Origin: Candidatus Komeilibacteria bacterium RIFOXYD1_FULL_37_29
GTDB lineage: Bacteria; Patescibacteriota; Patescibacteriia; UBA1558; GWA2-36-10
Assembly (NCBI GenBank): GCA_001818495.1
Contig: MHKS01000004.1
Span: forward strand, 84,657-148,656
Reading direction: 5' to 3'
Length of the DNA stretch: 64,000 nucleotides
In this document: one piece after another, positions 4,352 to 39,952 of the stretch
Layout of the letters: each line of letters starts with the position of its first letter
How positions within the stretch are numbered: position 1 is the stretch's first letter
Made by a program: the position numbers and the translations under genes
The notes under the pieces: model-generated
What the model saw: the letters and a program-made list of their open reading frames with translations, nothing else
What the model was told of the DNA's origin: nothing
The model's database searches: none

Positions 4352-5608
4352 ATGATGCCAAAAAATCTTTGGTTACAATTTCCGGAAGAGATAATGTTTT
4401 TTATCGCTAATGAAGTTGAACAGCTAGTTTATGATATAGCTGCTAAATTTGAATTGTCCGGCGAACAAGAAATGTATATCTTTGATCTAGCCGATGATAT
4501 TTTTTTGAAAAAAATCAGCATTTTGGATTTGCCTAATTATTTGGATAAAATACCCCAGGCCAAGGGAGTGGATGTGCGGCTTTTGGCACTGGACTTGGCT
4601 TATAAGGTCTTTTGGCCACTACAGGATTATTTAGGAGGAGTGGATCGTTTGATTTTACGTTTGGGCGGCAAGGTACCTAGACAAAAGACCCTGCAGGCCG
4701 GCTCTAAAGATGATAATAAGCTTTTTAATGGTACTGAGCAAAGTACTGTCAGTAAAATGTTGGAGCGTTATAAAAATTTTGCTAGTTTACGGCTCACGGC
4801 TAATAAAATTGTAAATAAAGCGGGGCACATAGTGCCGCCCATAGTGGCAAATTGGATTGAAGATTATGTACATTTTTTGGGAGCAGGAAACCACAATTCT
4901 TTAAAAAGAGCTCAATATCTTTCTAAAGCAGCCAATGCTTTAAAAGTGAGCGAAAAAGAAAGAGAAAGATTGCGTTATTTTTTTGTTTCTTATGATGAAA
5001 ATTCCCTAGTATTTTTTCATCTTGATCAAGGTATATTGATGGTTGAGGAAATACAGGAACAGGAAAAAACACCAGTAGCCGAAAATGCTAGTATAGACAT
5101 TTCCCAGACTTTGGATAATTTTTATCAAAATTTACGGTCTTTAGATAATAAAATAGTTTCCGCCAATATTATTATGTCTGAAGCTGAAAATAATCCCAAT
5201 AAAGTCCGAGATATTCTGTGGCAGGCCATGGGTATTGGTGATAAAGACAAAGCTTTGGGCTGTCTACGTGTTTTGATAACCAAAAAATCTTTTGATCAAA
5301 TGATCAAAGAGGATAGTCGTTTTAAAAATATTTTAAAGAGATTTATTGGTGTCAAATACGGTCAAAATATGGAACGGGCTTTGGATGAAAATATAGATCA
5401 GCTGATAGTTAGGCGTATTTTTTTGGAGATGATTTTATCCGAAAAATTAAGATTATCAGAGGAGGATGCTTATAGTACGGCTTTTTATCTGACCAATATT
5501 ATACCCGGTTCTGGACAGGTAGTTTATCTAGATAAGAGGAGTAAGGCATTTAGGTGGTTAGAAATTCAGGTGGTGGCCAATAAATTTTCTTGGGTTGATA
5601 AAATATAA
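4352..5608 (+). CDS. Hypothetical cytoplasmic protein
   Basis: Long ORF with no recognisable motifs and a host-like composition. Confidence 0.45.
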   Translation: MMPKNLWLQFPEEIMFFIANEVEQLVYDIAAKFELSGEQEMYIFDLADDIFLKKISILDLPNYLDKIPQAKGVDVRLLALDLAYKVFWPLQDYLGGVDRLILRLGGKVPRQKTLQAGSKDDNKLFNGTEQSTVSKMLERYKNFASLRLTANKIVNKAGHIVPPIVANWIEDYVHFLGAGNHNSLKRAQYLSKAANALKVSEKERERLRYFFVSYDENSLVFFHLDQGILMVEEIQEQEKTPVAENASIDISQTLDNFYQNLRSLDNKIVSANIIMSEAENNPNKVRDILWQAMGIGDKDKALGCLRVLITKKSFDQMIKEDSRFKNILKRFIGVKYGQNMERALDENIDQLIVRRIFLEMILSEKLRLSEEDAYSTAFYLTNIIPGSGQVVYLDKRSKAFRWLEIQVVANKFSWVDKI

Positions 5609-5674: not shown

Positions 5675-6841
5675 TTATTTAAATTTCCAGACAGTAATTT
5701 GTCTTTTGACTTTTTGATCTTCGCGACTATAGATAATATCCTCTTTGAGCTGGTAATCAAAACCTAGTCGGGAAATATTTTTTTTATCTAAAGTATAAAT
5801 ATCTTGGCCAGCAATATTAAAAACCGGGAAGATAAAGATTATTTGGCCAGCAGGGGAGAGTATTTTTTGGAATTTTTCAAAAGCTGTTTGGTAGAGGTTT
5901 TGCAGGTCTTTTTGAATAGTTAGTAGATTGTGGGAGCTTCTTTGCTGGCTAATAAAGCGAGCATCACCCATAAAAGGTTCACTAACTATCAGATCGATGG
6001 AGTTGGTTTCAAAATTTTGGTCTATATTTTTTACATCAATAACCTTTATTTTTAGATCAGCCTTTAGAGCAAAATTTTTGCTCAACCAATCTAAGTTTTG
6101 TTTGGTTTCTTCGACAGCCTGGGAGCTGATATCAGAGCCATAGATTTTTTTATAACCCAAAAGCATAGCTTCTTGTAGGATGGTACCGGAACCGCAAAAG
6201 GGGTCTAAGAGACTTTTATTGGTGTCATAGCCAGCTAAATTGACTAGCATGCGAGCGACTTTGGGTGGCAACATGCCACTTCGATTATCGCGATAAGGTC
6301 TGGCCATATCCCTAAAACCATAAGAAACAAAATCTTGTACAGTCCTAGTTATTCCCAGTAGGTACTCTTCGTGGTTTTTTATAATCAGTAGTTCATGATC
6401 GAGTAATTTATTTTTAGCTACTATGACTGATGATAAGACTGCTTCTTGGCCAGTGACCAAGCGGCTTTTGTATTTTTTCTCTCGTAGTATTTTTTTTAAT
6501 TGAAAGGCAACTTTTTTTATATTTTGATAATTATTATTGCTGTCATTATAAAGACTAAAGCCAAAACAGTTTTTACTAGTTGGTTTCAGATTGTTTTTTA
6601 GAATATCATACCAGAGACTAGTATTTAAGTCTGATAAATTTTTTATAGTTTGAATATATTGGCCGACTTTGATAGTGCCCCCCAAGATATTGATCAGTTC
6701 CTGAGGTGTTTGGTTAGCCGATATTACTGCAAAATTTGTGCCAGTTAGCTCTATTTGGCCATTTGAGGAGCTCAAAACAGCTGCCAGCTCTTGACGAGCT
6801 AGCGCAGAGGATTGTCCTAGTATTAGCAGGTATTTATTCAT
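5675..6841 (-). CDS. SAM-dependent RNA methyltransferase (UPF0020 / THUMP-associated family)
   Basis: Motif I LDPFCGSGTILQEA and a downstream degenerate NPPY-like segment (DLIVSEPFMGD). The N-terminal domain is non-catalytic. There is no restriction-enzyme partner gene. Confidence 0.55.
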   Translation of the reverse strand: MNKYLLILGQSSALARQELAAVLSSSNGQIELTGTNFAVISANQTPQELINILGGTIKVGQYIQTIKNLSDLNTSLWYDILKNNLKPTSKNCFGFSLYNDSNNNYQNIKKVAFQLKKILREKKYKSRLVTGQEAVLSSVIVAKNKLLDHELLIIKNHEEYLLGITRTVQDFVSYGFRDMARPYRDNRSGMLPPKVARMLVNLAGYDTNKSLLDPFCGSGTILQEAMLLGYKKIYGSDISSQAVEETKQNLDWLSKNFALKADLKIKVIDVKNIDQNFETNSIDLIVSEPFMGDARFISQQRSSHNLLTIQKDLQNLYQTAFEKFQKILSPAGQIIFIFPVFNIAGQDIYTLDKKNISRLGFDYQLKEDIIYSREDQKVKRQITVWKFK

Positions 6842-6889
6842 AACTATTATATAATAGTGTAAATTATATTTTTAGGCAATATTTCAGTA

Positions 6890-6918
6890 TTGACTTATCT
6901 ACTAAATTGTGTTAAATT
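6890..6918 (+). promoter_or_regulatory. Sigma70-like promoter TTGACT-17-TAAATT upstream of rpsF
   Basis: Hexamers read directly with 17-nt spacing, about 90 nt upstream of the rpsF ATG. A 7-bp leader hairpin (CCTTGAT/ATCAAGG) follows. Confidence 0.35.
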
Positions 6919-7009
6919 GCGCTCAAGTTAATATATCTTAATTAACCACGCTCCTCTTATTAACTGTAGGGGGCCCTTGATCACAAAATCAAGGTAATTA
7001 GATAGAAAA

Positions 7010-7522
7010 ATGAAATACGAACTATCTTTTATTATTAGTCCGGCTATCGCTGAAACAGATCATACATCTGTTAATCAGGAGGCATTGGACTATCTCAAAG
7101 GCATCGATGCTAAAGTCACTCGAGAGCCTTATTTTATGGGCCGCAGAAAGTTGGCCTACCCTATTGCCAAGCAAAAGCATGGTTTTTATGTTTGCCTGGA
7201 GTTTGAAGTAGCTGATGGCAAAAAATTGCCAGAGTTGGACACCAAATTAAAGCACAATACTAGCTTGTTGCGTTATTTGATTATTCGATTGGAAAATCGT
7301 ACTCAAAATGTAACAGTTGATTTTGCTAAAATGGAAGAAAGAGACCGAGCTAAAACAAAAGTAATGGCTAATAAAAAATCAAAAACTCCAACGACCCGAG
7401 CTCCTTTTAAGAGAGAGACTTATTTCAGTAAAAGCAAGCCAGAGGCTACTCAACCAAAAGTAAGGCTGGAAGATATTGATAAGAGATTGGATGAAATTTT
7501 GGAAGATCCAAAAATTGATTAA
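7010..7522 (+). CDS. rpsF: 30S ribosomal protein S6 with C-terminal acidic/basic extension
   Basis: N-terminal YELSFII...RRKLAYPI core typical of S6. Classic rpsF-ssb-rpsR gene order. Confidence 0.85.
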   Translation: MKYELSFIISPAIAETDHTSVNQEALDYLKGIDAKVTREPYFMGRRKLAYPIAKQKHGFYVCLEFEVADGKKLPELDTKLKHNTSLLRYLIIRLENRTQNVTVDFAKMEERDRAKTKVMANKKSKTPTTRAPFKRETYFSKSKPEATQPKVRLEDIDKRLDEILEDPKID

Positions 7523-7540
7523 TTTTATTAAGATAATTAT

Positions 7541-8017
7541 ATGAATTTGAACAAAGCAATGATCATCGGCAATGTAGTACGCGATCCAGAAATGCGTAGT
7601 ACTCCTAGTGGTCAAAATGTCAGCTCTTTTTCAGTGGCTACCAACAGAGTGTGGAATGATACCAATGGTCAAAAACAGGAAAAGGTGGAGTTTCATAATG
7701 TAGTCGCTTGGCGTCGTCTGGCTGAAATCAGCAATCAATATTTAAAGAAAGGATCAAAAGTCTATGTTGAAGGCAGATTACAAACAAGATCCTGGGATGA
7801 CCCCAATGGTGTTAAAAGATATCGGACCGAAATTATTTTAGAAAATATGATTATGTTGGACAGGTCTGGTGGAGTTTCTTCTGCTGCTGGCTCTTTCAAT
7901 ACTGAGCAACCTTCTATGGACAAAACACCAGTCGTCGATGTAGAACAAAGCGGAGTTTCTAAAAATAAAGCTAGTGACTCAGATGAGGAAATTAGCATTG
8001 AAGATATTCCATTTTAA
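7541..8017 (+). CDS. ssb: Single-stranded DNA-binding protein
   Basis: OB-fold SSB core (MIIGNVVRDPEMR...VVAWRRLAE) and the acidic C-terminal tail ending DIPF. Confidence 0.9.
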   Translation: MNLNKAMIIGNVVRDPEMRSTPSGQNVSSFSVATNRVWNDTNGQKQEKVEFHNVVAWRRLAEISNQYLKKGSKVYVEGRLQTRSWDDPNGVKRYRTEIILENMIMLDRSGGVSSAAGSFNTEQPSMDKTPVVDVEQSGVSKNKASDSDEEISIEDIPF

Positions 8018-8041
8018 AAACCAATTAATACAAAGTTTAAT

Positions 8042-8260
8042 ATGCATAAAAAACAAACCAGTAAATATTGTCATTTTTGTGTCAACAATATTTCCGATAT
8101 TGATTACAAAAATTGGCAGCAATTAAAACGCTTTACTTCTTCTTATGGAAAAATAGTACCAAAAAGAAGAAACGGTGTTTGCTCAAAACATCAAAGAAAA
8201 ATGGCTCAAGCTATCAAACGGGCTCGTTTTATGGCACTTTTGCCTTATGTAGCCAAATAA
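8042..8260 (+). CDS. rpsR: 30S ribosomal protein S18
   Basis: CHFC...YKN...LKRF...GKIVPKRRNGVC...QRKMAQAIKRAR, S18 signature. Confidence 0.9.
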   Translation: MHKKQTSKYCHFCVNNISDIDYKNWQQLKRFTSSYGKIVPKRRNGVCSKHQRKMAQAIKRARFMALLPYVAK

Positions 8261-8264
8261 GATT

Positions 8265-8822
8265 ATGTTGTCACTGAGTGATTTAAAATTAGGACGAGTG
8301 ATATCGGTCAATGAAGAGCCCTATCAGATTGTGTTTAATCAGCACATCAAAGTAGCTCGTGGTGGAGCAGTGGTTAAAACCAAACTCAAAAATTTGATTT
8401 CCGGAAATACTTTGGAAAAAACTTTTTCTGGTTCGGATGATATCATGGAAGCCGACATTAACCGTACCAAAGCCAATTTTCTTTATAAACAAGAAGATAC
8501 TTTTCATTTTATGGACAATGAAAGTTTTGAGCAGTTTCAATTTTCAGAAAATGATTTGGGCGATTTAGTAAAATATCTAATCGAAGGTCAGGAAGTAGAT
8601 GTTTTGGTTTTCAATGACCGACCGGTTTCTATAGCCTTACCGACTAAAATTAAATTAGAGGTCAAATCAGCACCAGAAGGTGTCAAAGGTAATAGTGCGG
8701 GAGCTATTACTAAAACAGTGGTTTTAGAAAATGACTTAGAATTGAGAACGCCATTGTTTATTAAATCTGGGGACAGAATTGTTGTTAATACCGAGACGGG
8801 AGAATATGTAGAAAGAGCTTAA
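8265..8822 (+). CDS. efp: Elongation factor P
   Basis: 185 aa with EF-P domain order (N-terminal KOW-like segment, two OB domains). The conserved loop region reads KVARGGA. Confidence 0.85.
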   Translation: MLSLSDLKLGRVISVNEEPYQIVFNQHIKVARGGAVVKTKLKNLISGNTLEKTFSGSDDIMEADINRTKANFLYKQEDTFHFMDNESFEQFQFSENDLGDLVKYLIEGQEVDVLVFNDRPVSIALPTKIKLEVKSAPEGVKGNSAGAITKTVVLENDLELRTPLFIKSGDRIVVNTETGEYVERA

Positions 8823-8845: not shown

Positions 8846-8884
8846 CCACCACTCAAAGCTTTAACGCCGGGCGGTGGTGTTTTT
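8846..8884 (+). terminator. Intrinsic terminator after efp
   Basis: CACCACC...GGTGGTG stem followed by TTTTTT. Confidence 0.5.
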
Positions 8885-9019
8885 TATTGTTTAATTGTTG
8901 GCTATAAATACTCAAATATGTTATAATATACTCACAATAGTTATCTACTGAAATGGTCTGAGAAGTTTTTAAAACAAAGCTTAGTAGCTAGCAAAAATAA
9001 AAATAATATACTCCAATTC

Positions 9020-10363
9020 ATGGACTTTGCAAATAATACAACCGTTAATATTTTAGATAACGACAACTGGTCTTCTTCGCTTTTGGTCAAAGATGAAAAG
9101 GGTAATTTGACTTACCTCAAAAATAAAGCACCCCAGATCAAGCTTGGCCCAGAGTCGCAAATTGATGTAGTTTCTGAAGGTGATTTAGCACCTCGGGATG
9201 CTTCTTTTATTTCACTGCCCAATATTTACGGCTCTTCTTCGGATAAAGCAGAACTTGTTTTTCATCCGCACGACAAGCAGGAGTTGGATTTTTTTGCTAA
9301 AAATGTACCACTAGATGATAGTAAAAAATATAGTATAGAAAAAATTGTGGCTCGCATTATTGCCAAGCAAGAGTTGGATTTTGATGAGAAAAATGCCAAA
9401 CTTTTTACTAATATTTTATACAATTTTTTCCGAAGTAGAAAAAGTGCGGCTATCGTGAGAGAGCTTTTGAGTAAAAATGTTTCATTGAAAAATAAACCAC
9501 TAGCGGGAGAAAATTTAGATACCATATTGTCTGTTATTAAAGTTATAAAAAATAAAATTGACTTGGCTGGGGGATTGGTAGTCAATCAAGCAGAATTAGC
9601 CCTTAAACAGGAGACAAGTGTTAAGTTGGAAATACCGACCATCAAAATAGAGGAAACAAACAATAACCAAAAATCAGCTCAAGACGAGATCAAAGATATG
9701 TTAAAAGGCGCTTTGCCAAAAGTAGAAGCCAAAATTATTGAAACAACAGTTGAGGACAAAAGTAAGATAAAGGATAAACAGGGAGTTCAACCAGCGGCTG
9801 GATTTTCTATTCCGGCGGGGTCAAAGGAACTTGATAAAAAACCGATTGTTAGTAACCCAAAGACCGATATAGTGGCTAGTAATAAAATTTTGGAGATTAA
9901 ACTAGATAGTCCGGAAGAAAAAATAGATATATCTTTACCCAAAGTATCTAGACCGGGTATTTCGCAAACTCCTAGGCGGTCTATGAGCGATGTTTTTACG
10001 CCAGCCAAAGAAGACGCTTCTTTTCTATCCAGGGCAACTTTAATGGGGCCAGTACAAGAATTGCAATCTTTTGATTTAATTGCTTTTCGTCGTTTGGGAA
10101 ATACTGCTGAAGAAAGAGTCCAAAAAGTGTTTGATCGGATAAATTTATTAGAGCAGGATTCTTATACTAAAAAAGCTCAAGGCATTGCTGCTTGGAGAGA
10201 GAGTGGTGTTTATAAATTATATCTTAAGCTAGGAGCAGATAGCATGATTGCTGGTCGGCAAGTGGCTGATTATATAGCAGACAAAGCAAATAAAAACGAA
10301 GATACTTTGAGTGTAGCCGAATTTTCAGCTATTTCTGATTTAAATAAGCAATTGAGGTTTTAA
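9020..10363 (+). CDS. Hypothetical protein, first gene of the T4SS-like cluster
   Basis: 447 aa hydrophilic, no TM helices and no recognisable motif. Its stop is 3 nt before the PrgI-like gene. Confidence 0.45.
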   Translation: MDFANNTTVNILDNDNWSSSLLVKDEKGNLTYLKNKAPQIKLGPESQIDVVSEGDLAPRDASFISLPNIYGSSSDKAELVFHPHDKQELDFFAKNVPLDDSKKYSIEKIVARIIAKQELDFDEKNAKLFTNILYNFFRSRKSAAIVRELLSKNVSLKNKPLAGENLDTILSVIKVIKNKIDLAGGLVVNQAELALKQETSVKLEIPTIKIEETNNNQKSAQDEIKDMLKGALPKVEAKIIETTVEDKSKIKDKQGVQPAAGFSIPAGSKELDKKPIVSNPKTDIVASNKILEIKLDSPEEKIDISLPKVSRPGISQTPRRSMSDVFTPAKEDASFLSRATLMGPVQELQSFDLIAFRRLGNTAEERVQKVFDRINLLEQDSYTKKAQGIAAWRESGVYKLYLKLGADSMIAGRQVADYIADKANKNEDTLSVAEFSAISDLNKQLRF

Positions 10364-10366
10364 GCT

Positions 10367-10849
10367 ATGCCAGAAAGATTTATTGTTCCACAATTTATCG
10401 ATACAGAAGACAAGATTTGGGGGCCGATTACAGTCCGACAATTTGTGATTATTCTAGCGGGCTTGCTTTTTGGGTTTATTGCCTACAAACTTTCTGATTT
10501 TTCTTTATTTATTTTTTGGGTAATTTTTATTGCATTTTTTGTGGGCGTTTTTGCTTTTTATAAAGTCAATGGAGCACCTTTTCATACTTTTGCTCTAAAT
10601 TTTATTGACAGTACTTTTAAAAAGCCGGCGCTGAGAGTTTGGCATAAAGAATACATTAAAGTACAGGAATTTAAATCCAAGAAAGAAAACCAAAACCCAC
10701 AAGTTTCCATAGCTCATAAACAAATGGTTTCTAGTCGGAAATTATCAGAATTATCTTTGATTATTGATACCGGTGGAGTTTACAAAGGAGAAAAACAAGC
10801 CAATGAAGAGCACTGGGTTGGTTTTTCAAATAAAAAAATTAATGATTAG
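10367..10849 (+). CDS. PrgI/VirB3-like small two-TM T4SS protein
   Basis: The N-terminus FIVPQFIDTEDKIWGPITVRQFVIIL is followed by two adjacent TM helices, a PrgI-family pattern. It sits immediately upstream of VirB4. Confidence 0.45.
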   Translation: MPERFIVPQFIDTEDKIWGPITVRQFVIILAGLLFGFIAYKLSDFSLFIFWVIFIAFFVGVFAFYKVNGAPFHTFALNFIDSTFKKPALRVWHKEYIKVQEFKSKKENQNPQVSIAHKQMVSSRKLSELSLIIDTGGVYKGEKQANEEHWVGFSNKKIND

Positions 10850-10851
10850 TC

Positions 10852-11532
10852 ATGAAAAATAAAAAATTAGCTGGTAATAAAGTGGCCACCTCTACTCAGA
10901 AATATTTGGATATTGCCGAAATCCGTGATAATTTGGTGGTTTTAAATGATGGTGCCGTCCGCGGTGTTTTATTGGTTTCTTCTATAAATTTTGATTTAAA
11001 ATCAGAGGACGAGCAGCGAGCTATTATCAGCAATTATGTTGGTTTCTTAAATACTTTAGACTATCCATTGCAAGTGATTATACAATCTCGACCTTTAAAT
11101 ATTGATGAGTATTTAGACAGATTGAAGAGAAAAGAAAGAGAGCAGACCAATGAATTATTGCGTATGCAAACGGCTGATTATCGCGGTTTTGTCCAAGAGC
11201 TTCTAACTCTAGAAAGTATTATGAGTAAAAAGTTTTATATAGTAGTTCCCTATAGTCAGGTCAGTGATAAACGTCGGGGATTTATTAGTCGTTTTGCTTC
11301 AGTTTTTTCTTCGGCCAAAGTTGTCACTTTAAGTCGTAAGCGTTTCGAAGAGTTTAGTGAACAGCTAGATAAACGTTGTAATTTTATTGGTAGTGGTTTA
11401 TCTGGGCTAGGACTAAGAAGCCAGCGTTTGAGTACACAGGCTTTAATTGAACTTTATTATAATAGTTATAATCCTGATATATTTCAAAAACAACCAATGG
11501 AGGATATAAATAAATTAACCGTTGAAACATAA
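10852..11532 (+). CDS. virB4: VirB4-like protein, N-terminal domain encoded as a separate ORF
   Basis: YLDIAEIRDNLVVLNDGAVRGVLLVSSINFDLKSEDEQ...QVIIQS resembles the N-terminal region of monoderm VirB4/TcpF/PrgJ proteins. The stop TAA overlaps the next ATG (TAATG). Confidence 0.5.
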   Translation: MKNKKLAGNKVATSTQKYLDIAEIRDNLVVLNDGAVRGVLLVSSINFDLKSEDEQRAIISNYVGFLNTLDYPLQVIIQSRPLNIDEYLDRLKRKEREQTNELLRMQTADYRGFVQELLTLESIMSKKFYIVVPYSQVSDKRRGFISRFASVFSSAKVVTLSRKRFEEFSEQLDKRCNFIGSGLSGLGLRSQRLSTQALIELYYNSYNPDIFQKQPMEDINKLTVET

Positions 11533-13454
11533 TGTTTGGTTTTAATAAAATAAAACAAGCCGAGCAAAAGACCAAAGGAGATAAGGATTTGGAAAAATTT
11601 GCTAGTGCTGAGCGGCGGGTTTTGTCTCAAACAGAGGTGATCGCTAGAGAAAAACAGCTGATCGAAGCAGAAAAAGTTTTTAGAGAAGGTATTGTTTCGG
11701 TTAGAGATATTGTAGCTCCTTCCGCTCTGAAAATTGATCCGAGGTTTTTACAGCTCAATGATTTTTATGTCCGGACTTTGTTTGTGATGACTTATCCGCG
11801 TTATGTTACTATTGGTTGGTTTGCACCGATTATCAATGAAAGTTTGACTCTGGATATCTCCATGTTTTTTTATCCTTTGGATATAAAATTGGTTTTAAAA
11901 CAGTTGAAAAATAAAGTTGGTACTATGCAGGCGCAGATTATTGCTGATCACGAAAAAGGTGCACCACGTGATCCGATTTCCGAAACAGCCCTTCAGGATA
12001 TCGAGGCGCTTCGGGACGGCTTGAGTCAGGGTACCGAAAAGTTTTTTCAATTTGCTCTCTATATTACTATTTATGCCAAAACTTTGGATGAACTAGATCT
12101 AGCCAGTGATCGTATTGAAAATTTATTGGGTATACAGCTTATTTATTCTCGTCGAGCTTTATTTCAGGCCGAACAGGGTTTTAATTCTACTCTGCCTTTG
12201 GGTAATGATGAGCTGAGTATTTCTACCAACATGAACAGCTCGCCAATCGCTTCGTCATTTCCTTTTGTCTCTTCCGAGCTGACTTCCGATGACGGAATTT
12301 TGTATGGTATCAATCGGCACAACAATAGTTTGATATTATTTGATCGTTTTTCTTTACAAAATGCCAACATGGTAGTGTTTGCTACTTCTGGTGCTGGTAA
12401 AAGCTATGCTATTAAATTGGAAGTGCTGAGGTCTATGATGTTGGGTACGGATGTTATTATTATTGACCCAGAAAATGAATACCAGCATCTGTCTGAGGCG
12501 GTTGGTGGTGCTTATATCAATGTATCTTTAAATTCTGAGAGCAAACTTAATCCTTTTGATCTGCCCAAGGGTTTTGGTGGCGATAGTAAGCCGGAAGATA
12601 TTATCAGAAGCGCTATTATTACTCTCAAAGGTTTGATCCGACTGATGATTGGTGATATTACCAACGGGGAAGATTCGCTGTTGGATCGGGCTATTTTAGA
12701 AACTTATGCTAAAAAAGATATTACGCCAGCTAGTGATTTGAATAATATTGAACCGCCGATTATGTCTGATTTGGAAGAGGTTTTGATCAGTATGGAAGGT
12801 GGGGAAGATATGGCCTTAAGAATTAAAAAATATACCGAAGGTACTTTTTCGGGGTTATTTAATAGTCCAACCAATATTAAAGTGGATAATCAATTGGTGG
12901 TATTTTGTATTCGGGACCTGGAAGATGAGCTTCGTCCGATTGCCATGTACATGATTATGACACATATCTGGAATATTATCAGAAGCGAATTGAAGCGCCG
13001 AATACTGGTAGTCGATGAGGCCTGGATTATGATGCGCCATGAAGATAGTGCCAAATTTATGTATGCTTTGGTGAAGCGTTGTCGTAAATATTATCTAGGA
13101 GTTACTACTATTACCCAAGATGTTAATGACTTTTTAACTTCTACTTATGGCAATGCTATTGTGACCAACTGCGCTTTACAACTTCTCTTAAAGCAGACTC
13201 CAGCCGCAGTCAATCTAGTTCAGAAGACATTTATGTTGACGGAAGGAGAAAAGTATCTACTGCTAGAAGCTGGATTAGGAGAGGGTATATTTTTTGCCGG
13301 AGCCAAACATGCGGCTATCAAGGTGCAAGCTTCTTATGCCGAGCATCAGATTATTACCTCAGACCCTCGTCAGTTGATAGAAATAGAAGAGGCCAAAAAA
13401 GAATTTGAAGAACAAATGATGGCCGAAGCAGAAAAAAATCCTAATCAAGTTTAG
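11532..13454 (+). CDS. virB4: VirB4/TraC/CagE-family T4SS ATPase (C-terminal two-thirds)
   Basis: Walker A VVFATSGAGKSY and Walker B ILVVDEAWIMM (the DEAW box typical of VirB4). The central domain shows the FYVRTLFVMTYPRYV pattern. Confidence 0.8.
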   Translation: MFGFNKIKQAEQKTKGDKDLEKFASAERRVLSQTEVIAREKQLIEAEKVFREGIVSVRDIVAPSALKIDPRFLQLNDFYVRTLFVMTYPRYVTIGWFAPIINESLTLDISMFFYPLDIKLVLKQLKNKVGTMQAQIIADHEKGAPRDPISETALQDIEALRDGLSQGTEKFFQFALYITIYAKTLDELDLASDRIENLLGIQLIYSRRALFQAEQGFNSTLPLGNDELSISTNMNSSPIASSFPFVSSELTSDDGILYGINRHNNSLILFDRFSLQNANMVVFATSGAGKSYAIKLEVLRSMMLGTDVIIIDPENEYQHLSEAVGGAYINVSLNSESKLNPFDLPKGFGGDSKPEDIIRSAIITLKGLIRLMIGDITNGEDSLLDRAILETYAKKDITPASDLNNIEPPIMSDLEEVLISMEGGEDMALRIKKYTEGTFSGLFNSPTNIKVDNQLVVFCIRDLEDELRPIAMYMIMTHIWNIIRSELKRRILVVDEAWIMMRHEDSAKFMYALVKRCRKYYLGVTTITQDVNDFLTSTYGNAIVTNCALQLLLKQTPAAVNLVQKTFMLTEGEKYLLLEAGLGEGIFFAGAKHAAIKVQASYAEHQIITSDPRQLIEIEEAKKEFEEQMMAEAEKNPNQV

Positions 13455-13492
13455 TTTTAAAGAAAAAATATTAGATAAGTTAATTTAAAAAT

Positions 13493-14047
13493 ATGGACGC
13501 TAAAAGAAAAAAAATACTTCTTATTCTAGCTGTACTCGTAGTATTGATCATACTTTTTTTAATCTGGATACTAAAAACTTCTGATCAAGGGCCGATGGGT
13601 AATGAAAACACCAATACTCCGCCGCCGGTTTTTAAAGCACCGAGTGTCAATTTGGAGTATAAAGATTCCGTAGAGGTCAAACAGACTTCTACCGAGTTTT
13701 CCGTGATTAATTTAGCCAAGACTTATGCGGCTAGATTTGGCTCTTGGTCCACCGATAATCAGGGAGCCAATCTCAACGAACTTTTGCCTCTTAGCACTGA
13801 AAAGATGAGGCAATACATTGCTAGTATTGATTTGGATTTTTCACCACAAGAGTTTCGAGGCAATACCACCAAAAGTATTAGCGCCAAAATAATCAGTTTA
13901 GACGAAAACAGTGCGGAGGTATTGGTCAATACTCAGAAAATAGAAACTAAGGCCAATTTGGAAGAGTCGGTCTACTATCAAGAAGCGACTGTCAAGATGA
14001 TTAAATCGGGTGATGTTTGGTTGGTTGATGAATTTATTTGGCAATAA
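13493..14047 (+). CDS. N-terminally membrane-anchored protein, possible VirB8-like component
   Basis: A single N-terminal TM helix then a soluble domain of about 150 aa. The size and topology are VirB8-like. The assignment is speculative. Confidence 0.3.
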   Translation: MDAKRKKILLILAVLVVLIILFLIWILKTSDQGPMGNENTNTPPPVFKAPSVNLEYKDSVEVKQTSTEFSVINLAKTYAARFGSWSTDNQGANLNELLPLSTEKMRQYIASIDLDFSPQEFRGNTTKSISAKIISLDENSAEVLVNTQKIETKANLEESVYYQEATVKMIKSGDVWLVDEFIWQ

Positions 14048-14050
14048 TTT

Positions 14051-14536
14051 TTGTTTATGGCTCTTGATTTAGCATTAAATCCGGAAGATTTAGGAGACGA
14101 CTTCGAAGACGAGGGCGAAGATTTTAATGATGAACTTTCTGAGGCTGGACAAAAAGAGGCTCAGCGTAATTTAGAAAGGATAAAAAAGCAAGTTAAAGAC
14201 AAAATCAAGAAACAGGTTCAGAAGGTAGCTAAGAAAATAGCTAGCAAAGTAACTGTTCGGGTAGTTTCTCTGGCTTGTGGAGCTACGGGTGTTGGACTTA
14301 TTGTTACTTATATTATTTGGACCGGGCAAGCCATCATTGCCAATTGGTTAGGCAAAGACAAAATTATACCAAAATTGGATTGGTGGGAGCTGGTTTTATG
14401 GGGCATTTTAACACTATTATTATTATTTCTCTTAGTAATTTTATTAGCTTTTTTAATAGTAGGTGCGGCTATTAGTAATCCAGTACTGGGGGTAACAATA
14501 CTTGGAGCTGTAGTTTGGAATTGGATCACCAGTTAG
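14051..14536 (+). CDS. Membrane protein with acidic N-terminus and two or three TM helices
   Basis: Asp/Glu-rich start, Lys-rich helix, then hydrophobic helices. No motif. Confidence 0.4.
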   Translation: MFMALDLALNPEDLGDDFEDEGEDFNDELSEAGQKEAQRNLERIKKQVKDKIKKQVQKVAKKIASKVTVRVVSLACGATGVGLIVTYIIWTGQAIIANWLGKDKIIPKLDWWELVLWGILTLLLLFLLVILLAFLIVGAAISNPVLGVTILGAVVWNWITS

Positions 14537-14553
14537 TATAAATAATATACATT

Positions 14554-15774
14554 ATGGATAAGAAAAAGATTTTTTTGGTCATCGGGTTTATTGTTCTAGT
14601 TTTGGGACTGGGCTTGGCTTTGTATTGGGTGTTTTTTAAACCAACTATTCCAATTACTCCAACAGATAATTTTAACGCTGGGAATTTGCCGGGGATTGGT
14701 AATGGCAATATACCGATTGTCAATGAAAATATCAATGCTCCTGACCAAGGATTGCCCTGGCAACAATATATTAAAGACAAAGTTTCCGATGTAGCCAGTG
14801 GCGGACTGACCAAGGTGTCAGAGGTTTCTGAAAATGAAGTCAGAGGGCTAACTAGTAGTCCCGGTGGTTTGCAATATTATGATGATAATGAACAAAAGTT
14901 TTATCGCATTACCGATAGTGGTACAGTAGAAGAATTGAGTAGCCAATTGTTTTATCAAGTAGAGGATGTGACCTGGGCTGGTAGCGGAGATAAGGCCATT
15001 TTGGAATATCCGGACGGATCAAATATTTTGTATAATTTTAAAAACGGCCAACAAGTGACCTTACCCAAAGAATTGGAAGATTTTTCTTTTGATGCTTCTG
15101 ATAGCCAAATTGCCGCCAAATGGATGGGCTCTAGTGAAGAGGATAACTGGGTGGTAGCATCCAATGATGATGGCTCGGGTATGTATCTTATCCAACCTTT
15201 GGGCGATCAAGCACATAATACTTTTGTCAGTTTTTCTCCAGATAATCAGGTAGCCGTCATGCATAGAAAATATGTGGACGCTCAAAGGCAAGAGGTTTAT
15301 CCTATTGGCTTACACGGCGAGACTTTTAAGGCTTTTACAGTGGCTGGCGCTGGTTTTGAATATGATTGGTCACCAGAGGGCAATAGTCTGGTTTATAGCG
15401 TTTATAATGAAACTAGTAATTACAATCCCAATCTTTGGGTGACCAATGGCAGTAGCAGTGAGTTGGGTGATATCAAAGTATCCTTAAATATTTCTACCTG
15501 GCCAGATAAATGCGCTTTTGTCGGTGAAGATATTATGTATTGCGCTGTACCTCAGGGATTGCCACGCGGTGCCGGACTTTATCCGGAAATAGCCGATCGT
15601 TATCCTGATAATTTCTATTATATCAACTTAAATTCCGGCTCTAAAAATTTGATTGCCAGTCCGGTTGGGGAGAGTGGTAGCTATACAGCCCATAATCTTT
15701 TTGTATCAAACGACCAATCAACCCTATATTTTACCGATCAGAACGGAAATTTACAAAGTATTAAATTAAAATAA
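14554..15774 (+). CDS. Membrane-anchored TolB-like (PD40 beta-propeller) protein
   Basis: N-terminal TM helix. PD40-like repeats are present (YPDGSNILYNF, FSPDNQVAVMH, WSPEGNSLVYSV). Confidence 0.5.
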   Translation: MDKKKIFLVIGFIVLVLGLGLALYWVFFKPTIPITPTDNFNAGNLPGIGNGNIPIVNENINAPDQGLPWQQYIKDKVSDVASGGLTKVSEVSENEVRGLTSSPGGLQYYDDNEQKFYRITDSGTVEELSSQLFYQVEDVTWAGSGDKAILEYPDGSNILYNFKNGQQVTLPKELEDFSFDASDSQIAAKWMGSSEEDNWVVASNDDGSGMYLIQPLGDQAHNTFVSFSPDNQVAVMHRKYVDAQRQEVYPIGLHGETFKAFTVAGAGFEYDWSPEGNSLVYSVYNETSNYNPNLWVTNGSSSELGDIKVSLNISTWPDKCAFVGEDIMYCAVPQGLPRGAGLYPEIADRYPDNFYYINLNSGSKNLIASPVGESGSYTAHNLFVSNDQSTLYFTDQNGNLQSIKLK

Positions 15775-15781
15775 TAATATT

Positions 15782-16549
15782 ATGAAAAATAAACGTTCAA
15801 TTATCTGGGGATCTTTACTACTATTATTTTTAATTTTTCCAGTCTTAGTTAACGCGATTGATGTAACCTATACACCAAATGTACCGATACCGATTAGGAT
15901 TGGTTCTTATGATTTTGGTGGAACAAATATAGTTGGTCCAGATTTTTTGGCTAGCTATATTGTGGCTATTTATACTTATGGAGCAGGTTTTGCCGGCATT
16001 GTAGCCATGTTTATGCTGGTGATTGCCGGTTGGCGTTGGCTTTTTGCCGCTGGTAATGCTAGTAAAATTGCCGCTGCCAAGGACACGGTCAATGGAGTCT
16101 TGGTTGGTTTGGCCTTACTTTTTGGCGGGCAATTGTTGCTTAGGCAAATTAGTGAGAATTTTAGCTCAATTCAAAGTTTGAAAGTCCAATTGCCAGAAGC
16201 AGCTCTCAATGCTATTTCTGCTAATAAGGCTAATGAGGATTTTTGTGCTAGTAGTGGCGAAGGATCTACTACAACAACTCCCAAAAGAGTTGAAGATTGT
16301 GAGGAATATAAAGATCCAACGCAATGTCTTACTGATACTTGTAATTTAATTGCCATTGGTGATTTTGATGACCGTTGTGTACCATTATTTAATAGGTCCA
16401 ATAATAGTTTTACCGGTTGTTCCGATTGTCCCAATACTTGTAGTTGCGATATATATATTAATGAGTTCTATAGAAATGCTGATCCTTGTGATTGTGATGA
16501 GGATAGCAAGTGGGTAGATGATAAATGTGAAGTTGTAGAGAATAACTAA
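15782..16549 (+). CDS. VirB2/TrbC-like T4SS pilin with cysteine-rich C-terminal domain
   Basis: A signal peptide (…VLVNA) is followed by two hydrophobic helices separated by a short charged loop (GNASKIAAAKD), the VirB2 topology. The last ~110 aa contain about 20 Cys. Confidence 0.45.
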   Translation: MKNKRSIIWGSLLLLFLIFPVLVNAIDVTYTPNVPIPIRIGSYDFGGTNIVGPDFLASYIVAIYTYGAGFAGIVAMFMLVIAGWRWLFAAGNASKIAAAKDTVNGVLVGLALLFGGQLLLRQISENFSSIQSLKVQLPEAALNAISANKANEDFCASSGEGSTTTTPKRVEDCEEYKDPTQCLTDTCNLIAIGDFDDRCVPLFNRSNNSFTGCSDCPNTCSCDIYINEFYRNADPCDCDEDSKWVDDKCEVVENN

Positions 16550-16552
16550 AGT

Positions 16553-18631
16553 TTATTCTAAATGAGTTTCGTTTTTTAGTTTGGCAATCGTAGCTTGCAG
16601 ATCGTGCCGAGCCAAATATTTTTGATCAGTCAAGATGTCCTGAGCCCATTTTTGGGCTTTTTTGATCAGAGCTGTTTCAGATAGCTTGGCTATTTTTAGT
16701 TTAATCAGGCCACTTTGTTTATGACCAAATATTTCACCGCTACCGCGTAGTTCTAGGTCCAAATCAGCCAATTTGAAGCCGTCACTAGTAGTACACAGCG
16801 CCTCTAGCCTTTTTTTACTAACCGACGAAATGTCATTGGTAAATAACAAACAAAAACTATCCAGAGCGTTTCGGCCAATCCGACCACGAAATTGATGCAA
16901 CTGACTGAGGCCAAATCTTTCGGCACTTTCTATGATCATGATGGTAGCTTGGGGGATATCTACACCCACTTCTATCACTGAAGTGGCAACTAAGATAGGG
17001 AATTGATTATTTTTAAAATCGGACATGATTTTTTCTTTGGCGTCGGATTTTAGCTTACCATGAAGCAGGCGGATTTCTAAATCAGGGAAAATATCTTTAT
17101 TTAATTTTTGATATTCAGCCGTGACAGATCTGACACCCAGCTTATCACTGTCATCTATCAATGGGCAGATGACAAAGACTTGTTCTTTATTTTGTATTTT
17201 TTCCCGAATAAAATTGTAAGCATCCAATCTTTTTTTCTCAGGCACTAAAAATGTTTTGATTTTTTTACGACCAGCTGGTTTTTCTTTGATTAGGGATATG
17301 TCCAGATCACCATAAAGCGTCAACGCTAAAGTGCGGGGGATGGGGGTAGCAGTCATAGATAATAAATGGGGCGCTTTGTGGTCTTTATTTTTTTCTTTCA
17401 GCGTTTTTCTTTGTCTGACCCCAAAGCGGTGTTGCTCATCAATAATAATCAAACCAAGTTTTTTAAAATTGATTTTATCTTGAATAAGACTATGAGTACC
17501 AACGACAAAATTGATAGAGCCGCTCGCTATTTTTTTGATTAGCTCAGTTTTATTGGTATTTGTACCGTCAGCCAATAGTTGATGGCTTTTGGTCAGTAGA
17601 GCAATTTGCGGTAAGTATTTAGCTGGTAGTATTTTTTTAATAGTAGCCAAATGTTGATTAGCTAGTATTTCGGTCGGAGCCATCAGGGCTACTTGTAAGC
17701 CGTGTGATAAGACATTCAAAGCTGATAAAATAGCTACGATTGTTTTGCCAGAGCCGACATCGCCTTCAATCAGTCGGTTCATCGGTATATCTTTGTTTAG
17801 ATCAGCCAAGACATCATAGAGAGCTTTTTGCTGGTCTAGGGTCAACTTAAAAGGCAGTGTTTTGATGTTTTGATTTAATAGATGGTTGTTTAAAGAGATT
17901 TGATAAGTGGGTTGAGACTGGTAGTTTTTTTTGGCCAATTGGTATTTGATTTGCAAATAAAATAATTCCTGAAATTTTAGTCTTTGACTAGCCGCTTCTA
18001 AAGATTTTTGGTCACTGGGGAAATGAATCTGTTTAAGAGATTCCATCAGCCAAGGATATTTTTCTTTATTAAGGATTTCCACCGGCAGAGGATCATCAAC
18101 TGGTGTTATTTCTTTTAAGGCTTTACTTATTAAAAAGCGCAGTTGTTTTTGGGTGATTTGGCCACTTAAATGATAAAGAGGCACTATCCGACCGCTGTGG
18201 ATAAGGTCAGCCTTGGCTTTTTCATAGCTGGGACTGATAAATTGCCAGCTAGATTTTTTGGCTTTTATTTTGCCACTGAGATAGACTTGATCGCCGATTT
18301 TAAGTATTTGAGAGATAAACTTTTGTCTAAACCAAATAGCTTCTACTGTACCACTGTCATCTTCAGCTATTAGCTCAGTGATGATCATCTTGGCTCGCCA
18401 AGCCCGGTAGCTTTTGATTTTGGTTATTTTGACGCAAACTGTATTTACTTCATTTTCATCAATATCTTTGACTAACTTGATATTGCTCAAATCATCATAA
18501 CGACCTGGGAAATACCAGAGCAAATCAGCCACGGTGTGGATATCCATTTTTTTTAAATCAGAAGCTAGACTGTTGGCTATGGAGTGCAGTTTTTTGATAT
18601 CCAAATTTAAATCCAGTATTGTTTTGCCCAT
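16553..18631 (-). CDS. recG: ATP-dependent DNA helicase RecG
   Basis: Wedge/OB N-terminal domain. Helicase motif I GDVGSGKT and motif II DEQHRFGV. The length of 692 aa is typical. Confidence 0.9.
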   Translation of the reverse strand: MGKTILDLNLDIKKLHSIANSLASDLKKMDIHTVADLLWYFPGRYDDLSNIKLVKDIDENEVNTVCVKITKIKSYRAWRAKMIITELIAEDDSGTVEAIWFRQKFISQILKIGDQVYLSGKIKAKKSSWQFISPSYEKAKADLIHSGRIVPLYHLSGQITQKQLRFLISKALKEITPVDDPLPVEILNKEKYPWLMESLKQIHFPSDQKSLEAASQRLKFQELFYLQIKYQLAKKNYQSQPTYQISLNNHLLNQNIKTLPFKLTLDQQKALYDVLADLNKDIPMNRLIEGDVGSGKTIVAILSALNVLSHGLQVALMAPTEILANQHLATIKKILPAKYLPQIALLTKSHQLLADGTNTNKTELIKKIASGSINFVVGTHSLIQDKINFKKLGLIIIDEQHRFGVRQRKTLKEKNKDHKAPHLLSMTATPIPRTLALTLYGDLDISLIKEKPAGRKKIKTFLVPEKKRLDAYNFIREKIQNKEQVFVICPLIDDSDKLGVRSVTAEYQKLNKDIFPDLEIRLLHGKLKSDAKEKIMSDFKNNQFPILVATSVIEVGVDIPQATIMIIESAERFGLSQLHQFRGRIGRNALDSFCLLFTNDISSVSKKRLEALCTTSDGFKLADLDLELRGSGEIFGHKQSGLIKLKIAKLSETALIKKAQKWAQDILTDQKYLARHDLQATIAKLKNETHLE

Positions 18632-18693
18632 TTAAACTGTTTTAATAAGCTGGACAAAATTGCCCAGCTTAAAGTTTTTTATTTTTTGTATGT

Positions 18694-19275
18694 TTATAAT
18701 TTTAGTATGCGAGATATACCTTCGCTAGTGGGGATTTCTTCTTTTTTTAGATCTTCGTCTAAATATTGGATGAGTATTTCTCTGATGCGAACTGGGTTTT
18801 GATTTTCTAGAGGGATAACCATTCTTTGTTTAATAAAACCCTTGGGTTGAAAATAGAGGTTTTTTATTTCCGGAGGATAGTAGATAATATAGAAATTTTG
18901 AAAATCCTCATAAGGAATAAATTTACTGCCGATAAATATGCCATCTTCGGTCAAGGCTGTTTCTACCATTTTTGGTTCATCTTTGGCCGAGCTAAAGTAT
19001 AAAACAGCAAAAATTACCAAAATAATAGCAAAAAGTAGATTGTCAGAAAAATAGGCGTAGACCAGTAGAGCCACAAAGACAATAGTAAAGGCTACATACC
19101 AGAGGGTTCCTTTTTGATGTTTGATAAATTCTGGAAATTCCCAGAAGGCTAGGACATCGCCATAATCACCAGCACCCGTATCGTCATCTCCCATATTTTC
19201 TACCATTTCGTCTGCTTGTTCAGCAGATGCTTTGGCTTTTTTTACATTTTTGGTATTTTTATTAGTTTTTACCAT
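18694..19275 (-). CDS. Hypothetical membrane protein
   Basis: Two central TM helices with a Lys-rich N-terminus. No motif. Confidence 0.45.
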   Translation of the reverse strand: MVKTNKNTKNVKKAKASAEQADEMVENMGDDDTGAGDYGDVLAFWEFPEFIKHQKGTLWYVAFTIVFVALLVYAYFSDNLLFAIILVIFAVLYFSSAKDEPKMVETALTEDGIFIGSKFIPYEDFQNFYIIYYPPEIKNLYFQPKGFIKQRMVIPLENQNPVRIREILIQYLDEDLKKEEIPTSEGISRILKL

Positions 19276-19437
19276 AGAATTTTATTAACTAGTGATTTTA
19301 TTATAACATATTCATTGGATTTCAGCCATTGCTCTAGGTATTGTCAAATAGGGCAAAATATATTATTATATAGCAGTCTTTTACGCTATAGAGCTTCAAT
19401 GGCTTAGTGTATTGTTTTATTAGGGTAAAAGTATAAT

Positions 19438-19476
19438 TTAGGAGAGTTGGCAGAGTGGTTGAATGCGGCGGTCTTG
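19438..19476 (+). repeat. Partial 5' copy (about 39 nt) of the downstream tRNA-Ser(TGA) gene including 3 nt of upstream flank
   Basis: Exact direct repeat of 19575..19613, covering the acceptor 5' strand, D-arm and 5' half of the anticodon arm. No matching 3' half follows, so it is not a functional tRNA. Confidence 0.7.
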
Positions 19477-19577
19477 TTCCCTGTTTGTCCAAGAGCGTAG
19501 CGATTGGCAACAAACAGCAATCCCGCCAAAGGCGGGAAAAACCTCCAAGGTTATTTACTAAGCAGAAATTTATTTTA

Positions 19578-19665
19578 GGAGAGTTGGCAGAGTGGTTGAA
19601 TGCGGCGGTCTTGAAAACCGTTGAGCCGAAAGGTTCCGAGGGTTCGAATCCTTCACTCTCCGCCA
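19578..19665 (+). tRNA. tRNA-Ser (anticodon TGA), long variable arm
   Basis: Cloverleaf folded by hand. Acceptor GGAGAGT/ACTCTCC, anticodon loop CTTGAAA, variable arm TGAGCCGAAAGGTTCC, T-loop TTCGAAT, CCA encoded. Confidence 0.85.
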
Positions 19666-19741
19666 GTCCTCGTAGCTCAATGGATAGAGCGTTTGGTTGC
19701 GGTCCAAAAGGTTGCAGGTTCGATTCCTGCCGGGGACGCCA
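19666..19741 (+). tRNA. tRNA-Arg (anticodon reads GCG)
   Basis: Begins immediately after tRNA-Ser. Acceptor GTCCTCG/CGGGGAC with one G-U pair, anticodon stem TTTGG/CCAAA, loop TTGCGGT, T-loop TTCGATT, CCA encoded. Confidence 0.65.
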
Positions 19742-19755
19742 TTTATTTAATTTTT

Positions 19756-19846
19756 GGAGAGGTGCCTGAGTGGTTGAAAGGGGCACCCTGCTAAGGTGTT
19801 ACTCCGTTTTTCGGGGTCGAGGGTTCGAATCCCTCCCTCTCCGCCA
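19756..19846 (+). tRNA. tRNA-Ser (anticodon GCT), long variable arm
   Basis: Acceptor GGAGAGG/CCTCTCC, anticodon loop CTGCTAA, long variable arm, T-loop TTCGAAT, CCA encoded. Confidence 0.85.
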
Positions 19847-19865
19847 TAATTTATTTTTTACTCTA

Positions 19866-19887
19866 CTGCCCTAAAAGGCGGTTTTTT
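19866..19887 (+). terminator. Weak intrinsic terminator after the tRNA cluster
   Basis: CTGCC/GGCGG stem (one G-U) followed by TTTTTT. Confidence 0.35.
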
Positions 19888-19901
19888 GTTATAATATTAA
19901 T

Positions 19902-20498
19902 ATGTTTATTAAATCCCACAATCTTCATAAATTACTTATCACTTCCTATGGCGTATCGACCTTTTCCGAAGGATTTTTGATGCCTATTTATGCCATATTT
20001 GTGCAAGGAATTGGTGGGGATATTTTGGAAGCGTCGGCGGCCATTTCTATATTTTTATTGGTATCAGGACTGACTACTATTTTTATTCATCGTTCTGCTT
20101 GGAGTGAAAAACATCGGGTTAAATTATTGGTTTATGGTTGGCTACTTTGGGCCATTGGTATTGGCGGTTATTTTTTTATTGTTGATACTTACACTTTATT
20201 TGCCGTACAAGTTATTGTGGCCTTGGGTAATGCTATTGCTGACCCAGCTTTTAGCGCTGAGTTGGATGATAATATCAATAAAAATAAAAAATCTTATTCC
20301 TGGGGAGTTTTTCAAGGCATTCAAGATATAGCCAACAGTATTGCCGCTATCGCTGGCGGTCTGATCGCCAGCTTGTTTGGTTTTCGCGTTTTGATAGCTT
20401 TTATGTTTGCTACTGCCACTTTGTCTTTTCTGATAATTTTATATTATGTTAAAATAAAGAATAGAAATTGGTTGGACAAACTTATTCATAATAATTAA
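19902..20498 (+). CDS. Half-size (6-TM) MFS-like transporter fragment, possible pseudogene or remnant
   Basis: 198 aa with six TM helices, resembling the C-terminal half of a 12-TM MFS transporter. It lies directly next to the tRNA cluster. Confidence 0.35.
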   Translation: MFIKSHNLHKLLITSYGVSTFSEGFLMPIYAIFVQGIGGDILEASAAISIFLLVSGLTTIFIHRSAWSEKHRVKLLVYGWLLWAIGIGGYFFIVDTYTLFAVQVIVALGNAIADPAFSAELDDNINKNKKSYSWGVFQGIQDIANSIAAIAGGLIASLFGFRVLIAFMFATATLSFLIILYYVKIKNRNWLDKLIHNN

Positions 20499-20511
20499 TA
20501 AAATAAAAATT

Positions 20512-20688
20512 ATGTCAAAAAATGCTTGTGGAGCCGGTGGTGCTATTTATGGTTTGGGTTTTATCGGGGCGGTTATTTATTATATTCAGCACGCCGATTC
20601 TTTTACCATGGGGTTAGTCGGCTTTTTAAAAGCCATAGTTTGGCCAGCTTTTCTGATGTATAAATTATTGGAATTTTTCCAAATGTAA
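20512..20688 (+). CDS. Small (58 aa) two-TM membrane peptide
   Basis: Below the ORF-track cutoff. Reads MSKNACGAGGAIYGLGFIGAVIYYIQ... Hydrophobic. Confidence 0.3.
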   Translation: MSKNACGAGGAIYGLGFIGAVIYYIQHADSFTMGLVGFLKAIVWPAFLMYKLLEFFQM

Positions 20689-20706
20689 ATACTGGTCAAA
20701 ATTATT

Positions 20707-32186: not shown

Positions 32187-32189
32187 GTT

Positions 32190-33674: not shown

Positions 33675-33680
33675 AAATTT

Positions 33681-34448: not shown

Positions 34449-34453
34449 TTTTT

Positions 34454-34822: not shown

Positions 34823-34843
34823 GATGATATAAGATTATTTTTT

Positions 34844-36580: not shown

Positions 36581-36616
36581 TCAAAATATTAATTATATAA
36601 TATACAATATAATCAT

Positions 36617-37003: not shown

Positions 37004-37004
37004 C

Positions 37005-38057: not shown

Positions 38058-38063
38058 TAATTT

Positions 38064-39272: not shown

Positions 39273-39292
39273 TTTTATTAGTGGAAAAATTG

Positions 39293-39925: not shown

Positions 39926-39952
39926 TGCTTAACTCAATTTTAATTTAAAAAG

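Follow-up and report, generated by a model that had tools for sequence, protein, structure and literature searches.

A 64,000-nucleotide stretch of contig MHKS01000004.1 (positions 84,657 to 148,656, forward strand) from Candidatus Komeilibacteria bacterium RIFOXYD1_FULL_37_29, here called the window, carries the genes of a type IV secretion system (T4SS). With a probability of roughly 0.85, we take the locus to be the ABY1/Komeilibacteria version of the chromosomal T4SS of the Patescibacteria clade, a system derived from the monoderm conjugation machinery of the mating-pair-formation class MPF-FATA. Eight open reading frames (ORFs) on the (+) strand at 9020–16549, with spacings of −1 to 38 nt in the ORF list, form an operon-like block, and the genes for a VirB6-like protein and for a conserved protein that we call X418 lie 4.7 kb upstream of it. 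The set of parts, the topologies of the proteins, and the linkage of the genes, all given below, are direct observations. A preliminary description, made from the sequence alone, had claimed a T4SS-like module of a reduced-genome monoderm in a contiguous same-strand block; every ORF that it named is present where it was placed, and the core reading is correct for each named gene. It overlooked a TrsD-like gene, a small polytopic protein gene, and X418, however, and it left the 447-aa product of the first gene undescribed.

The ATPase core is the most readily recognized part of the block. The VirB4 ATPase (11532–13454, +; 640 aa) passes the cut-off of the conjugative family model NF045971 conju_CD1110 (E 5.5e-102, 342 bits against 325), matches P-loop_TraG (E 1.2e-27, 97 bits), and has intact Walker A (ATSGAGKS) and Walker B (ILVVDE) motifs. 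Relatives of VirB4 were confirmed 584 times in GTDB genomes; the best 80 of these 584, nearly all labeled as Patescibacteria or candidate phyla radiation lineages, anchor the loci (numbered with L below) in which gene order was compared. The window VirB4 matches the 752-position NF045971 model only from about position 167 onward, the N-terminal part being absent, and that part is therefore carried by the TrsD-like protein encoded immediately upstream (10852–11532, +; 226 aa), which resembles the VirB4 N-terminal domain as a separate polypeptide. Matches of this protein to NF041427 TrsD (E 2.2e-9) and to positions 91–256 of VirB4_plasma (E 2.3e-11) are both under the curated cut-offs, a precomputed match to the TraC-like family PF26593 is recorded for it, and a TrsD family profile found no significant match among Protein Data Bank (PDB) sequences. 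The TrsD stop codon overlaps the VirB4 start codon (TAATG), and in one locus (L062:746–3106) the two are fused into a single 786-aa ORF, which argues that TrsD is the detached N-terminal domain of VirB4. TrsD-like genes are present in 71 of the 80 loci. The PrgI/VirB3-like protein, encoded 5′ of TrsD and VirB4 (10367–10849, +; 160 aa, two transmembrane (TM) helices), likewise passes its family cut-off (PF12666, E 7.7e-12, 46 bits against 27), and PrgI has the same position in the 70 loci that encode it. Both VirB4 and PrgI/VirB3 had been named in the preliminary description, which counted similarity of VirB4 alone to T4SS profiles as an outcome that would overturn it; the profile searches gave a different result.

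Downstream of virB4, the ORF at 13493–14047 (+; 184 aa) encodes a bitopic protein with a TM helix at residues 3–30, a disordered linker, and an NTF2-like domain at residues 66–184. Structure prediction, for which this ORF had been singled out, yields the VirB8 fold after the N-terminal TM helix, and the sequence match to PrgL is clear. The features that define VirB8, a bitopic topology and an extracytoplasmic NTF2-like domain, are thus found together in this protein. PDB entry 4ec6 is TraM of pIP501, a VirB8-like protein. An NTF2-like domain matching the ECOD entry e4ec6 is listed for SEML1_0012 in the T4SS locus of Southlakia epibionticum, a gene scored nonessential (supplementary table of PMC10633639); this listing contrasts with the 2025 survey of Patescibacteria T4SSs, which reports finding no structural homologue of VirB8 in that organism (PMC12102498).

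The VirB6/TrbL-like gene (899–4270, +) encodes an extended polytopic protein of 1123 aa, with about eight hydrophobic segments in residues 1–313 followed by a 793-aa tail (16% Lys + Arg, 15% Asp + Glu), in agreement with the earlier claim of a distant VirB6/TrbL-like gene with a charged tail of about 800 aa. Alone, the protein scores weakly against TrbL (E 0.38, 10.9 bits against a cut-off of 25.9) and against CD3337/EF1877 (E 9.5e-4), and comparison with TrwI of R388 gives only E 0.64, over the TM region. Its orthologues are found in 54 of the 80 loci, 5′ of PrgI, and 15 of 43 of them match PF04610 TrbL (best E 6.8e-10). We tentatively identify the protein as VirB6-like from its topology, its conserved position, and the TrbL matches of the orthologue family.

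The last gene of the block (15782–16549, +) encodes an extended VirB2-like pilin of 255 aa, in which a signal peptide and two hydrophobic helices precede a C-terminal, 12-Cys tail of about 130 aa. On its own, the window pilin stays under the cut-off of PF18895 T4SS_pilin (E 0.0035, 17.8 bits against 26.6). Iterative searching recovers 57 related ORFs from 47 loci, pilin arrays of the Saccharimonadia type (L016 and L017) among them; PF18895 is matched by 41 of 51 orthologues (best E 1e-20), and the best PDB matches of the family profile are to VirB2 of Agrobacterium tumefaciens (E 0.013–0.018). The topology, the 12 Cys residues, and the orthologue matches uphold the earlier claims of an unusual VirB2-like pilin and of a Cys-rich addition. 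Only the first ~140 residues are shared across the family, and the C-terminal part ranges from none to about 400 aa. In two members (L005:17552–19123, −, and L067:3746–5122), this part is a Peptidase_M23 domain, and others match SLT_3, Peptidase_M15_4, or a Lustrin-type Cys-rich domain. Variable cargo, including the VirB1-like wall hydrolase that is otherwise missing, may be borne by the pilin domain.

Directly upstream of the pilin gene, the ORF at 14554–15774 (+) encodes a membrane-anchored β-propeller of 406 aa, composed of a signal-anchor helix (residues 3–28), a disordered linker of ~40 aa, and a propeller (residues 85–404) that appears seven-bladed and in which Cys320 and Cys330 are invariant. 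A full-length orthologue lies 3′ of virB4 in 38 of the 49 loci whose downstream sequence reaches 6 kb or more. The reciprocal comparison used 80 metagenome loci anchored on a propeller subclade (31–100% identity to its anchor): virB4 is found on the same strand, 1.6–5.9 kb 5′ of the propeller, in all 24 loci with at least 6 kb upstream, and 55 of 77 loci have an ORF of the pilin family no more than 300 nt from the propeller. The preliminary description had called the protein TolB-like and a nonstandard T4SS part. Its TM anchor and propeller are borne out, and PD40-type repeats are shared with TolB of the Tol-Pal system, whose propeller domain is matched by the family profile at E 7e-11; the likeness to TolB is confined to these repeats. 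TolB orthology is rejected, as the combination of a TolB N-terminal domain and a six-bladed propeller in a Tol-Pal system was not found. The term nonstandard holds in comparison with canonical T4SSs but not among Patescibacteria loci, where the propeller is a regular and tightly linked component.

We found no description of the propeller in the literature searched. Neither it nor X418 nor Y447, the product of the first gene, is mentioned in the accessible text of PMC12102498 or PMC10633639, although a supplementary table of neighboring families in the former may still list the propeller. The linkage of propeller and virB4, and the presence beside the propeller of a pilin with a variable C-terminal module, thus go beyond the literature searched. 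The propeller and the extended pilin might form a dedicated extracellular T4SS module in the Patescibacteria other than Saccharimonadia, a proposal to which we give slightly less than even odds. Such a module could serve at the pilus base or in host contact, replacing the missing VirB5, adhesin, and VirB1 functions. An exported DsbA/thioredoxin-like protein, encoded elsewhere in the window (48621–49391), could plausibly oxidize the Cys-rich pilin tail, the propeller's invariant Cys pair, and a 36-Cys secreted protein described below.

The synteny comparison proposed in the preliminary description shows a gene order conserved across the 80 GTDB loci. The common order is VirB6-like, X418, PrgI, TrsD, VirB4, small polytopic protein, a bitopic protein of ~230 aa, extended pilin, and propeller. 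In the window, a methyltransferase gene (−) and rpsF-ssb-rpsR-efp (5675–8822) separate VirB6-like and X418 from the remaining T4SS genes. Only the closest relatives (L001, L002, and L075) share this interposed block, and the T4SS genes are contiguous in the other lineages; the methyltransferase/rpsF-ssb-rpsR-efp block came to lie between VirB6-like/X418 and the operon in this lineage. After efp, a terminator-like hairpin (8863–8881, +) precedes the region's best promoter-like site (8898–8927, +; TTGGCT, 18 nt, TG-TATAAT). The two probably mark the start of the block's transcription unit; both are consensus matches only, in a region where promoter-like sites do not exceed shuffle expectation. 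The G+C content is 0.34–0.39 in the block and 0.33–0.42 in the window, with no compositional break at the locus. Two loci with a Komeilibacteria-type T4SS (L004 and L075; VirB4 identity 82–87%) are deposited as metagenome-assembled genomes (MAGs) of "uncultured Gammaproteobacteria," a label that probably reflects bin contamination or mislabeling. The "Candidatus Saccharibacteria" labels of many binchicken/SRP MAG contigs seem generic as well.

Parts specific to conjugation or to diderm T4SSs were sought by Pfam scans of the block ORFs, VirB6-like, X418, and 30 ORFs from the rest of the window (27 of at least 200 aa), together with the gene calls for about 10 kb past each end. Neither a relaxase (MOB) nor a type IV coupling protein (T4CP; VirD4/TcpA) was found in the scanned window ORFs or in these flanks, and weak T4SS-DNA_transf and CD1115 signals are confined to the P-loop domain of VirB4 itself. 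No family match to an integrase or recombinase and no compositional island was found in the 64 kb plus ~10 kb on each side, and VirB5, VirB7, VirB9, VirB10, and VirB11 have no family match among the scanned window ORFs. The only T2SSE-family ATPases in the window (34844–36580 and 37005–38057) are read as PilB and PilT rather than VirB11 because they lie between pilM and pilC in a type IV pilus cluster. Two large proteins with no Pfam match are secreted and have no Walker A motif. The claimed lack of VirD4, relaxase, VirB11, and VirB9/10 accordingly holds for the scanned window ORFs, and an intact conjugative element, which had been named as a finding that would overturn the description, was not found within ~10 kb on either side. 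Since neither a relaxase nor a coupling protein was found at the locus or close to it, the machine probably does not serve conjugation.

Three other explanations of the locus were weighed. The idea that VirB4 is the only genuine T4SS gene and that its small membrane neighbors are unrelated has virtually no chance of being right; it is refuted by a PrgI that passes its cut-off, by the clear VirB8 fold and PrgL sequence match, by the T4SS_pilin and TrbL matches of the pilin and VirB6-like families, and by the linkage of these neighbors to virB4 in dozens of divergent loci. The locus could instead be a part or remnant of a conjugative element, either an integrative and conjugative element or derived from a plasmid, with its relaxase, T4CP, and integrase outside the inspected region. 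The VirB4 protein does pass the cut-off of a conjugative family model, the three tRNA genes at 19578–19846 are possible integration sites, and 109 relaxases and thousands of VirD4 homologues, usually far from virB4, are reported for Patescibacteria (PMC12102498). We nevertheless reject this explanation as highly improbable given the lack of a relaxase, T4CP, integrase, or recombinase in the window and its flanks, the uniform G+C content, the housekeeping genes interleaved with the locus, and a gene order common to the 80 Patescibacteria loci anchored on virB4, a conservation that speaks for a core chromosomal system inherited vertically.

A T4SS coupled to DNA uptake and competence, like ComB of Helicobacter, is unlikely as well, although less so. 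Such a system would import environmental or host DNA for use by ComF, RecG, SSB, and LigA. The T4SS block ends 3 nt short of a convergent recG (−), which is followed by a conserved 193-aa membrane-protein gene and a comF-like gene (16553–21447), and these three genes are linked to the T4SS in eight loci (L001, L002, L005, L009, L010, L012, L032, and L041). The same ABY1-specific comF/recG/radA context is described in PMC12102498, and the T4SS has been put forward in a perspective paper as a candidate route of nucleotide acquisition (PMC11665869). ComB of Helicobacter pylori shares with the window a T4SS that is without relaxase and T4CP and lies next to recombination and competence genes, but ComB belongs to the diderm MPF-T systems and has homologues of VirB7, VirB9, and VirB10, families that no scanned window ORF matches. 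On the other side, deletion of comEC in S. epibionticum abolishes competence and not viability, whereas the T4SS is essential, so that competence and T4SS are separable in that organism. The recG-comF genes are on the strand opposite to the T4SS block, T4SS genes lie near dnaA/dnaN in other classes (PMC12102498), and a complete type IV pilus cluster, the usual uptake machine of monoderms, is already in the window. The earlier listing of ssb, recG, comF, ligA, and the competence pilus is accurate in that all are in the window, but ssb belongs to the housekeeping rpsF-ssb-rpsR operon, which is interposed only in the closest relatives.

The chromosomal Patescibacteria-clade T4SS is therefore the assignment that we prefer, and some points count against it. 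The window VirB6-like protein and pilin are under the Pfam cut-offs when taken alone, their assignment resting on the orthologue families. The essentiality data come from another class, Saccharimonadia, whose locus has no propeller. About 84 kb of the 904-kb assembly was scanned, and a T4CP or relaxase could be encoded elsewhere, many distant VirD4 homologues being reported in Patescibacteria (PMC12102498).

The kind of system is not new. Quinonero-Coronel et al. (2025, PMC12102498) describe a monophyletic Patescibacteria VirB4 clade related to MPF-FATA in which TrsD is the most abundant associated component and PrgI, VirB6, and VirB2-like pilins also occur. According to the same text, relaxases are nearly absent and T4CP genes rarely near virB4, VirB8 homologues, some of them detected by comparison with PrgL profiles, are almost exclusive to ABY1, and comF, recG, and radA are neighbors of the ABY1 T4SS. 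The window shares with the clade VirB4 and a separate TrsD, PrgI/VirB3, an extended VirB6-like protein, VirB2-like pilin(s), a chromosomal location, and the lack of a relaxase and T4CP at the locus, and with the published ABY1 version the VirB8 homologue and the comF/recG neighbors. Proteins A2406_04460 and A2406_04470 of RIFOXYC1_FULL_37_11, a Candidatus Komeilibacteria bacterium, match the VirB8-like protein and the propeller of the window at 100% identity, and the VirB6-like protein of the window is encoded identically in GCA_001818445.1, an assembly that the supplement of that paper places in class ABY1 and gives as virB4-positive. Because both the clade and an assembly with identical proteins are covered there, the module is already known; the residual interest lies in its uncharacterized accessory genes.

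Wang et al. (2023, PMC10633639) found that the T4SS locus and pilin array of S. epibionticum are essential and comEC is not. That Saccharimonadia locus (SEML1_0006–0019) has an array of six short pilins, whereas the window has a single extended pilin with a Cys-rich tail; no propeller is recorded for it in the accessible text, whereas the window has a propeller gene; and the window has no lysozyme/peptidase (VirB1-like) gene next to virB4. The VirB6 part of the window is also split off by housekeeping genes, unlike in the Saccharimonadia locus. With the T4SSs of Gram-positive bacteria, the window shares a CD1110-type VirB4, PrgI, TrsD, a PrgL-like VirB8 domain, a polytopic VirB6 analogue, and the lack of an outer-membrane core. 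It is without the relaxase, T4CP, PrgK/TraG-type hydrolase, and PrgB-type adhesin of these systems, which in turn lack the VirB2-like pilin and the propeller.

By analogy with what is generally known of the R388 and pCF10/pIP501 T4SSs, we propose that PrgI and TrsD would tether a VirB4 hexamer to a membrane translocon of VirB6 and VirB8. The Sec-inserted pilin would be pulled from the membrane by VirB4 and polymerized into a surface fiber or stub, with the Cys-rich C-terminal modules presumably facing outward and stabilized by disulfides. The propeller, which is on a flexible linker outside the membrane and is nearly always encoded beside the pilin gene, would act with the pilin, and it could serve as an assembly platform or as an element of host contact or adhesion. 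For the machine as a whole, a role at the interface between epibiont and host cell, in effector export or in uptake of host molecules, appears most likely. A recent perspective calls the role of Patescibacteria T4SSs completely unknown (PMC11665869), and a full parts list is needed to learn how these abundant, ultra-small epibionts exploit their hosts. The window provides a clean ABY1 example, with a VirB8-fold protein confirmed by structure prediction, and its propeller and extended pilin, being strictly linked to virB4, are concrete candidates for the part of the machine that lies outside the cell and faces the host.

Three further genes belong to the locus. X418 (4352–5608, +; 418 aa, no TM segment) has no Pfam or NCBIfam match, and its family profile matches no PDB sequence; homologues are found in 51 of the 80 loci, between VirB6-like and PrgI where both occur. 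Y447, the first gene of the block (9020–10363, +), encodes a soluble protein of 447 aa with a Lys/Glu-rich middle, for which no family match was found in Pfam or NCBIfam and no profile similarity to X418, TrsD, or PrgI. Its homologues are restricted to six close ABY1-type loci and lie 5′ of PrgI in each. No domain match is attached to the public gene calls of X418 and Y447. The small polytopic protein between the VirB8-like and propeller genes (14051/14057–14536, +; in the public annotation it begins with the ATG at 14057) has homologues in only four close loci, and profile comparison with the pilin, PrgI, and VirB6 families gave nothing significant.

The flanks extend the housekeeping setting: ksgA and a 2872-aa surface protein lie upstream within ~10 kb of the window, and gatB, miaA, miaB, thrS, and dnaE lie downstream. 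The ORF at 1–859 is the C terminus of the 2872-aa protein (L081:1343–9961), which has a weak CBM_4_9 match and stops 40 nt short of the VirB6-like gene; this protein may act as a giant surface adhesin and be cotranscribed with the membrane part of the T4SS. Its C-terminal fragment (146–859) has no homologue in the 80 virB4 loci. The rest of the window holds housekeeping genes, the type IV pilus cluster (30969–44799), the comF-like gene, clpB, ligA, pyrimidine genes, thyA, and tmk. Within the pilus cluster, a 403-aa protein (41298–42509) combines a pilin-like N-terminal hydrophobic segment, GGFTFLELMIVIAV, with a C-terminal Hint (intein/hedgehog-like) domain. Two large secreted proteins with no family match, one of 817 aa with 7 Cys residues (26017–28470) and the other of 761 aa with 36 Cys residues (28604–30889), are encoded directly 5′ of pilM. 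A 150-aa ORF at 19334–19786 (−) overlaps the three opposite-strand tRNA genes for Ser, Arg, and Ser (19578–19846) and is almost certainly not a gene. A transfer-messenger RNA (tmRNA) gene at 56466–56850 (−) is found by Rfam (122.7 bits) and was not reported by ARAGORN; the ORF next to it (56856–57308) corresponds to the smpB gene call in L083.

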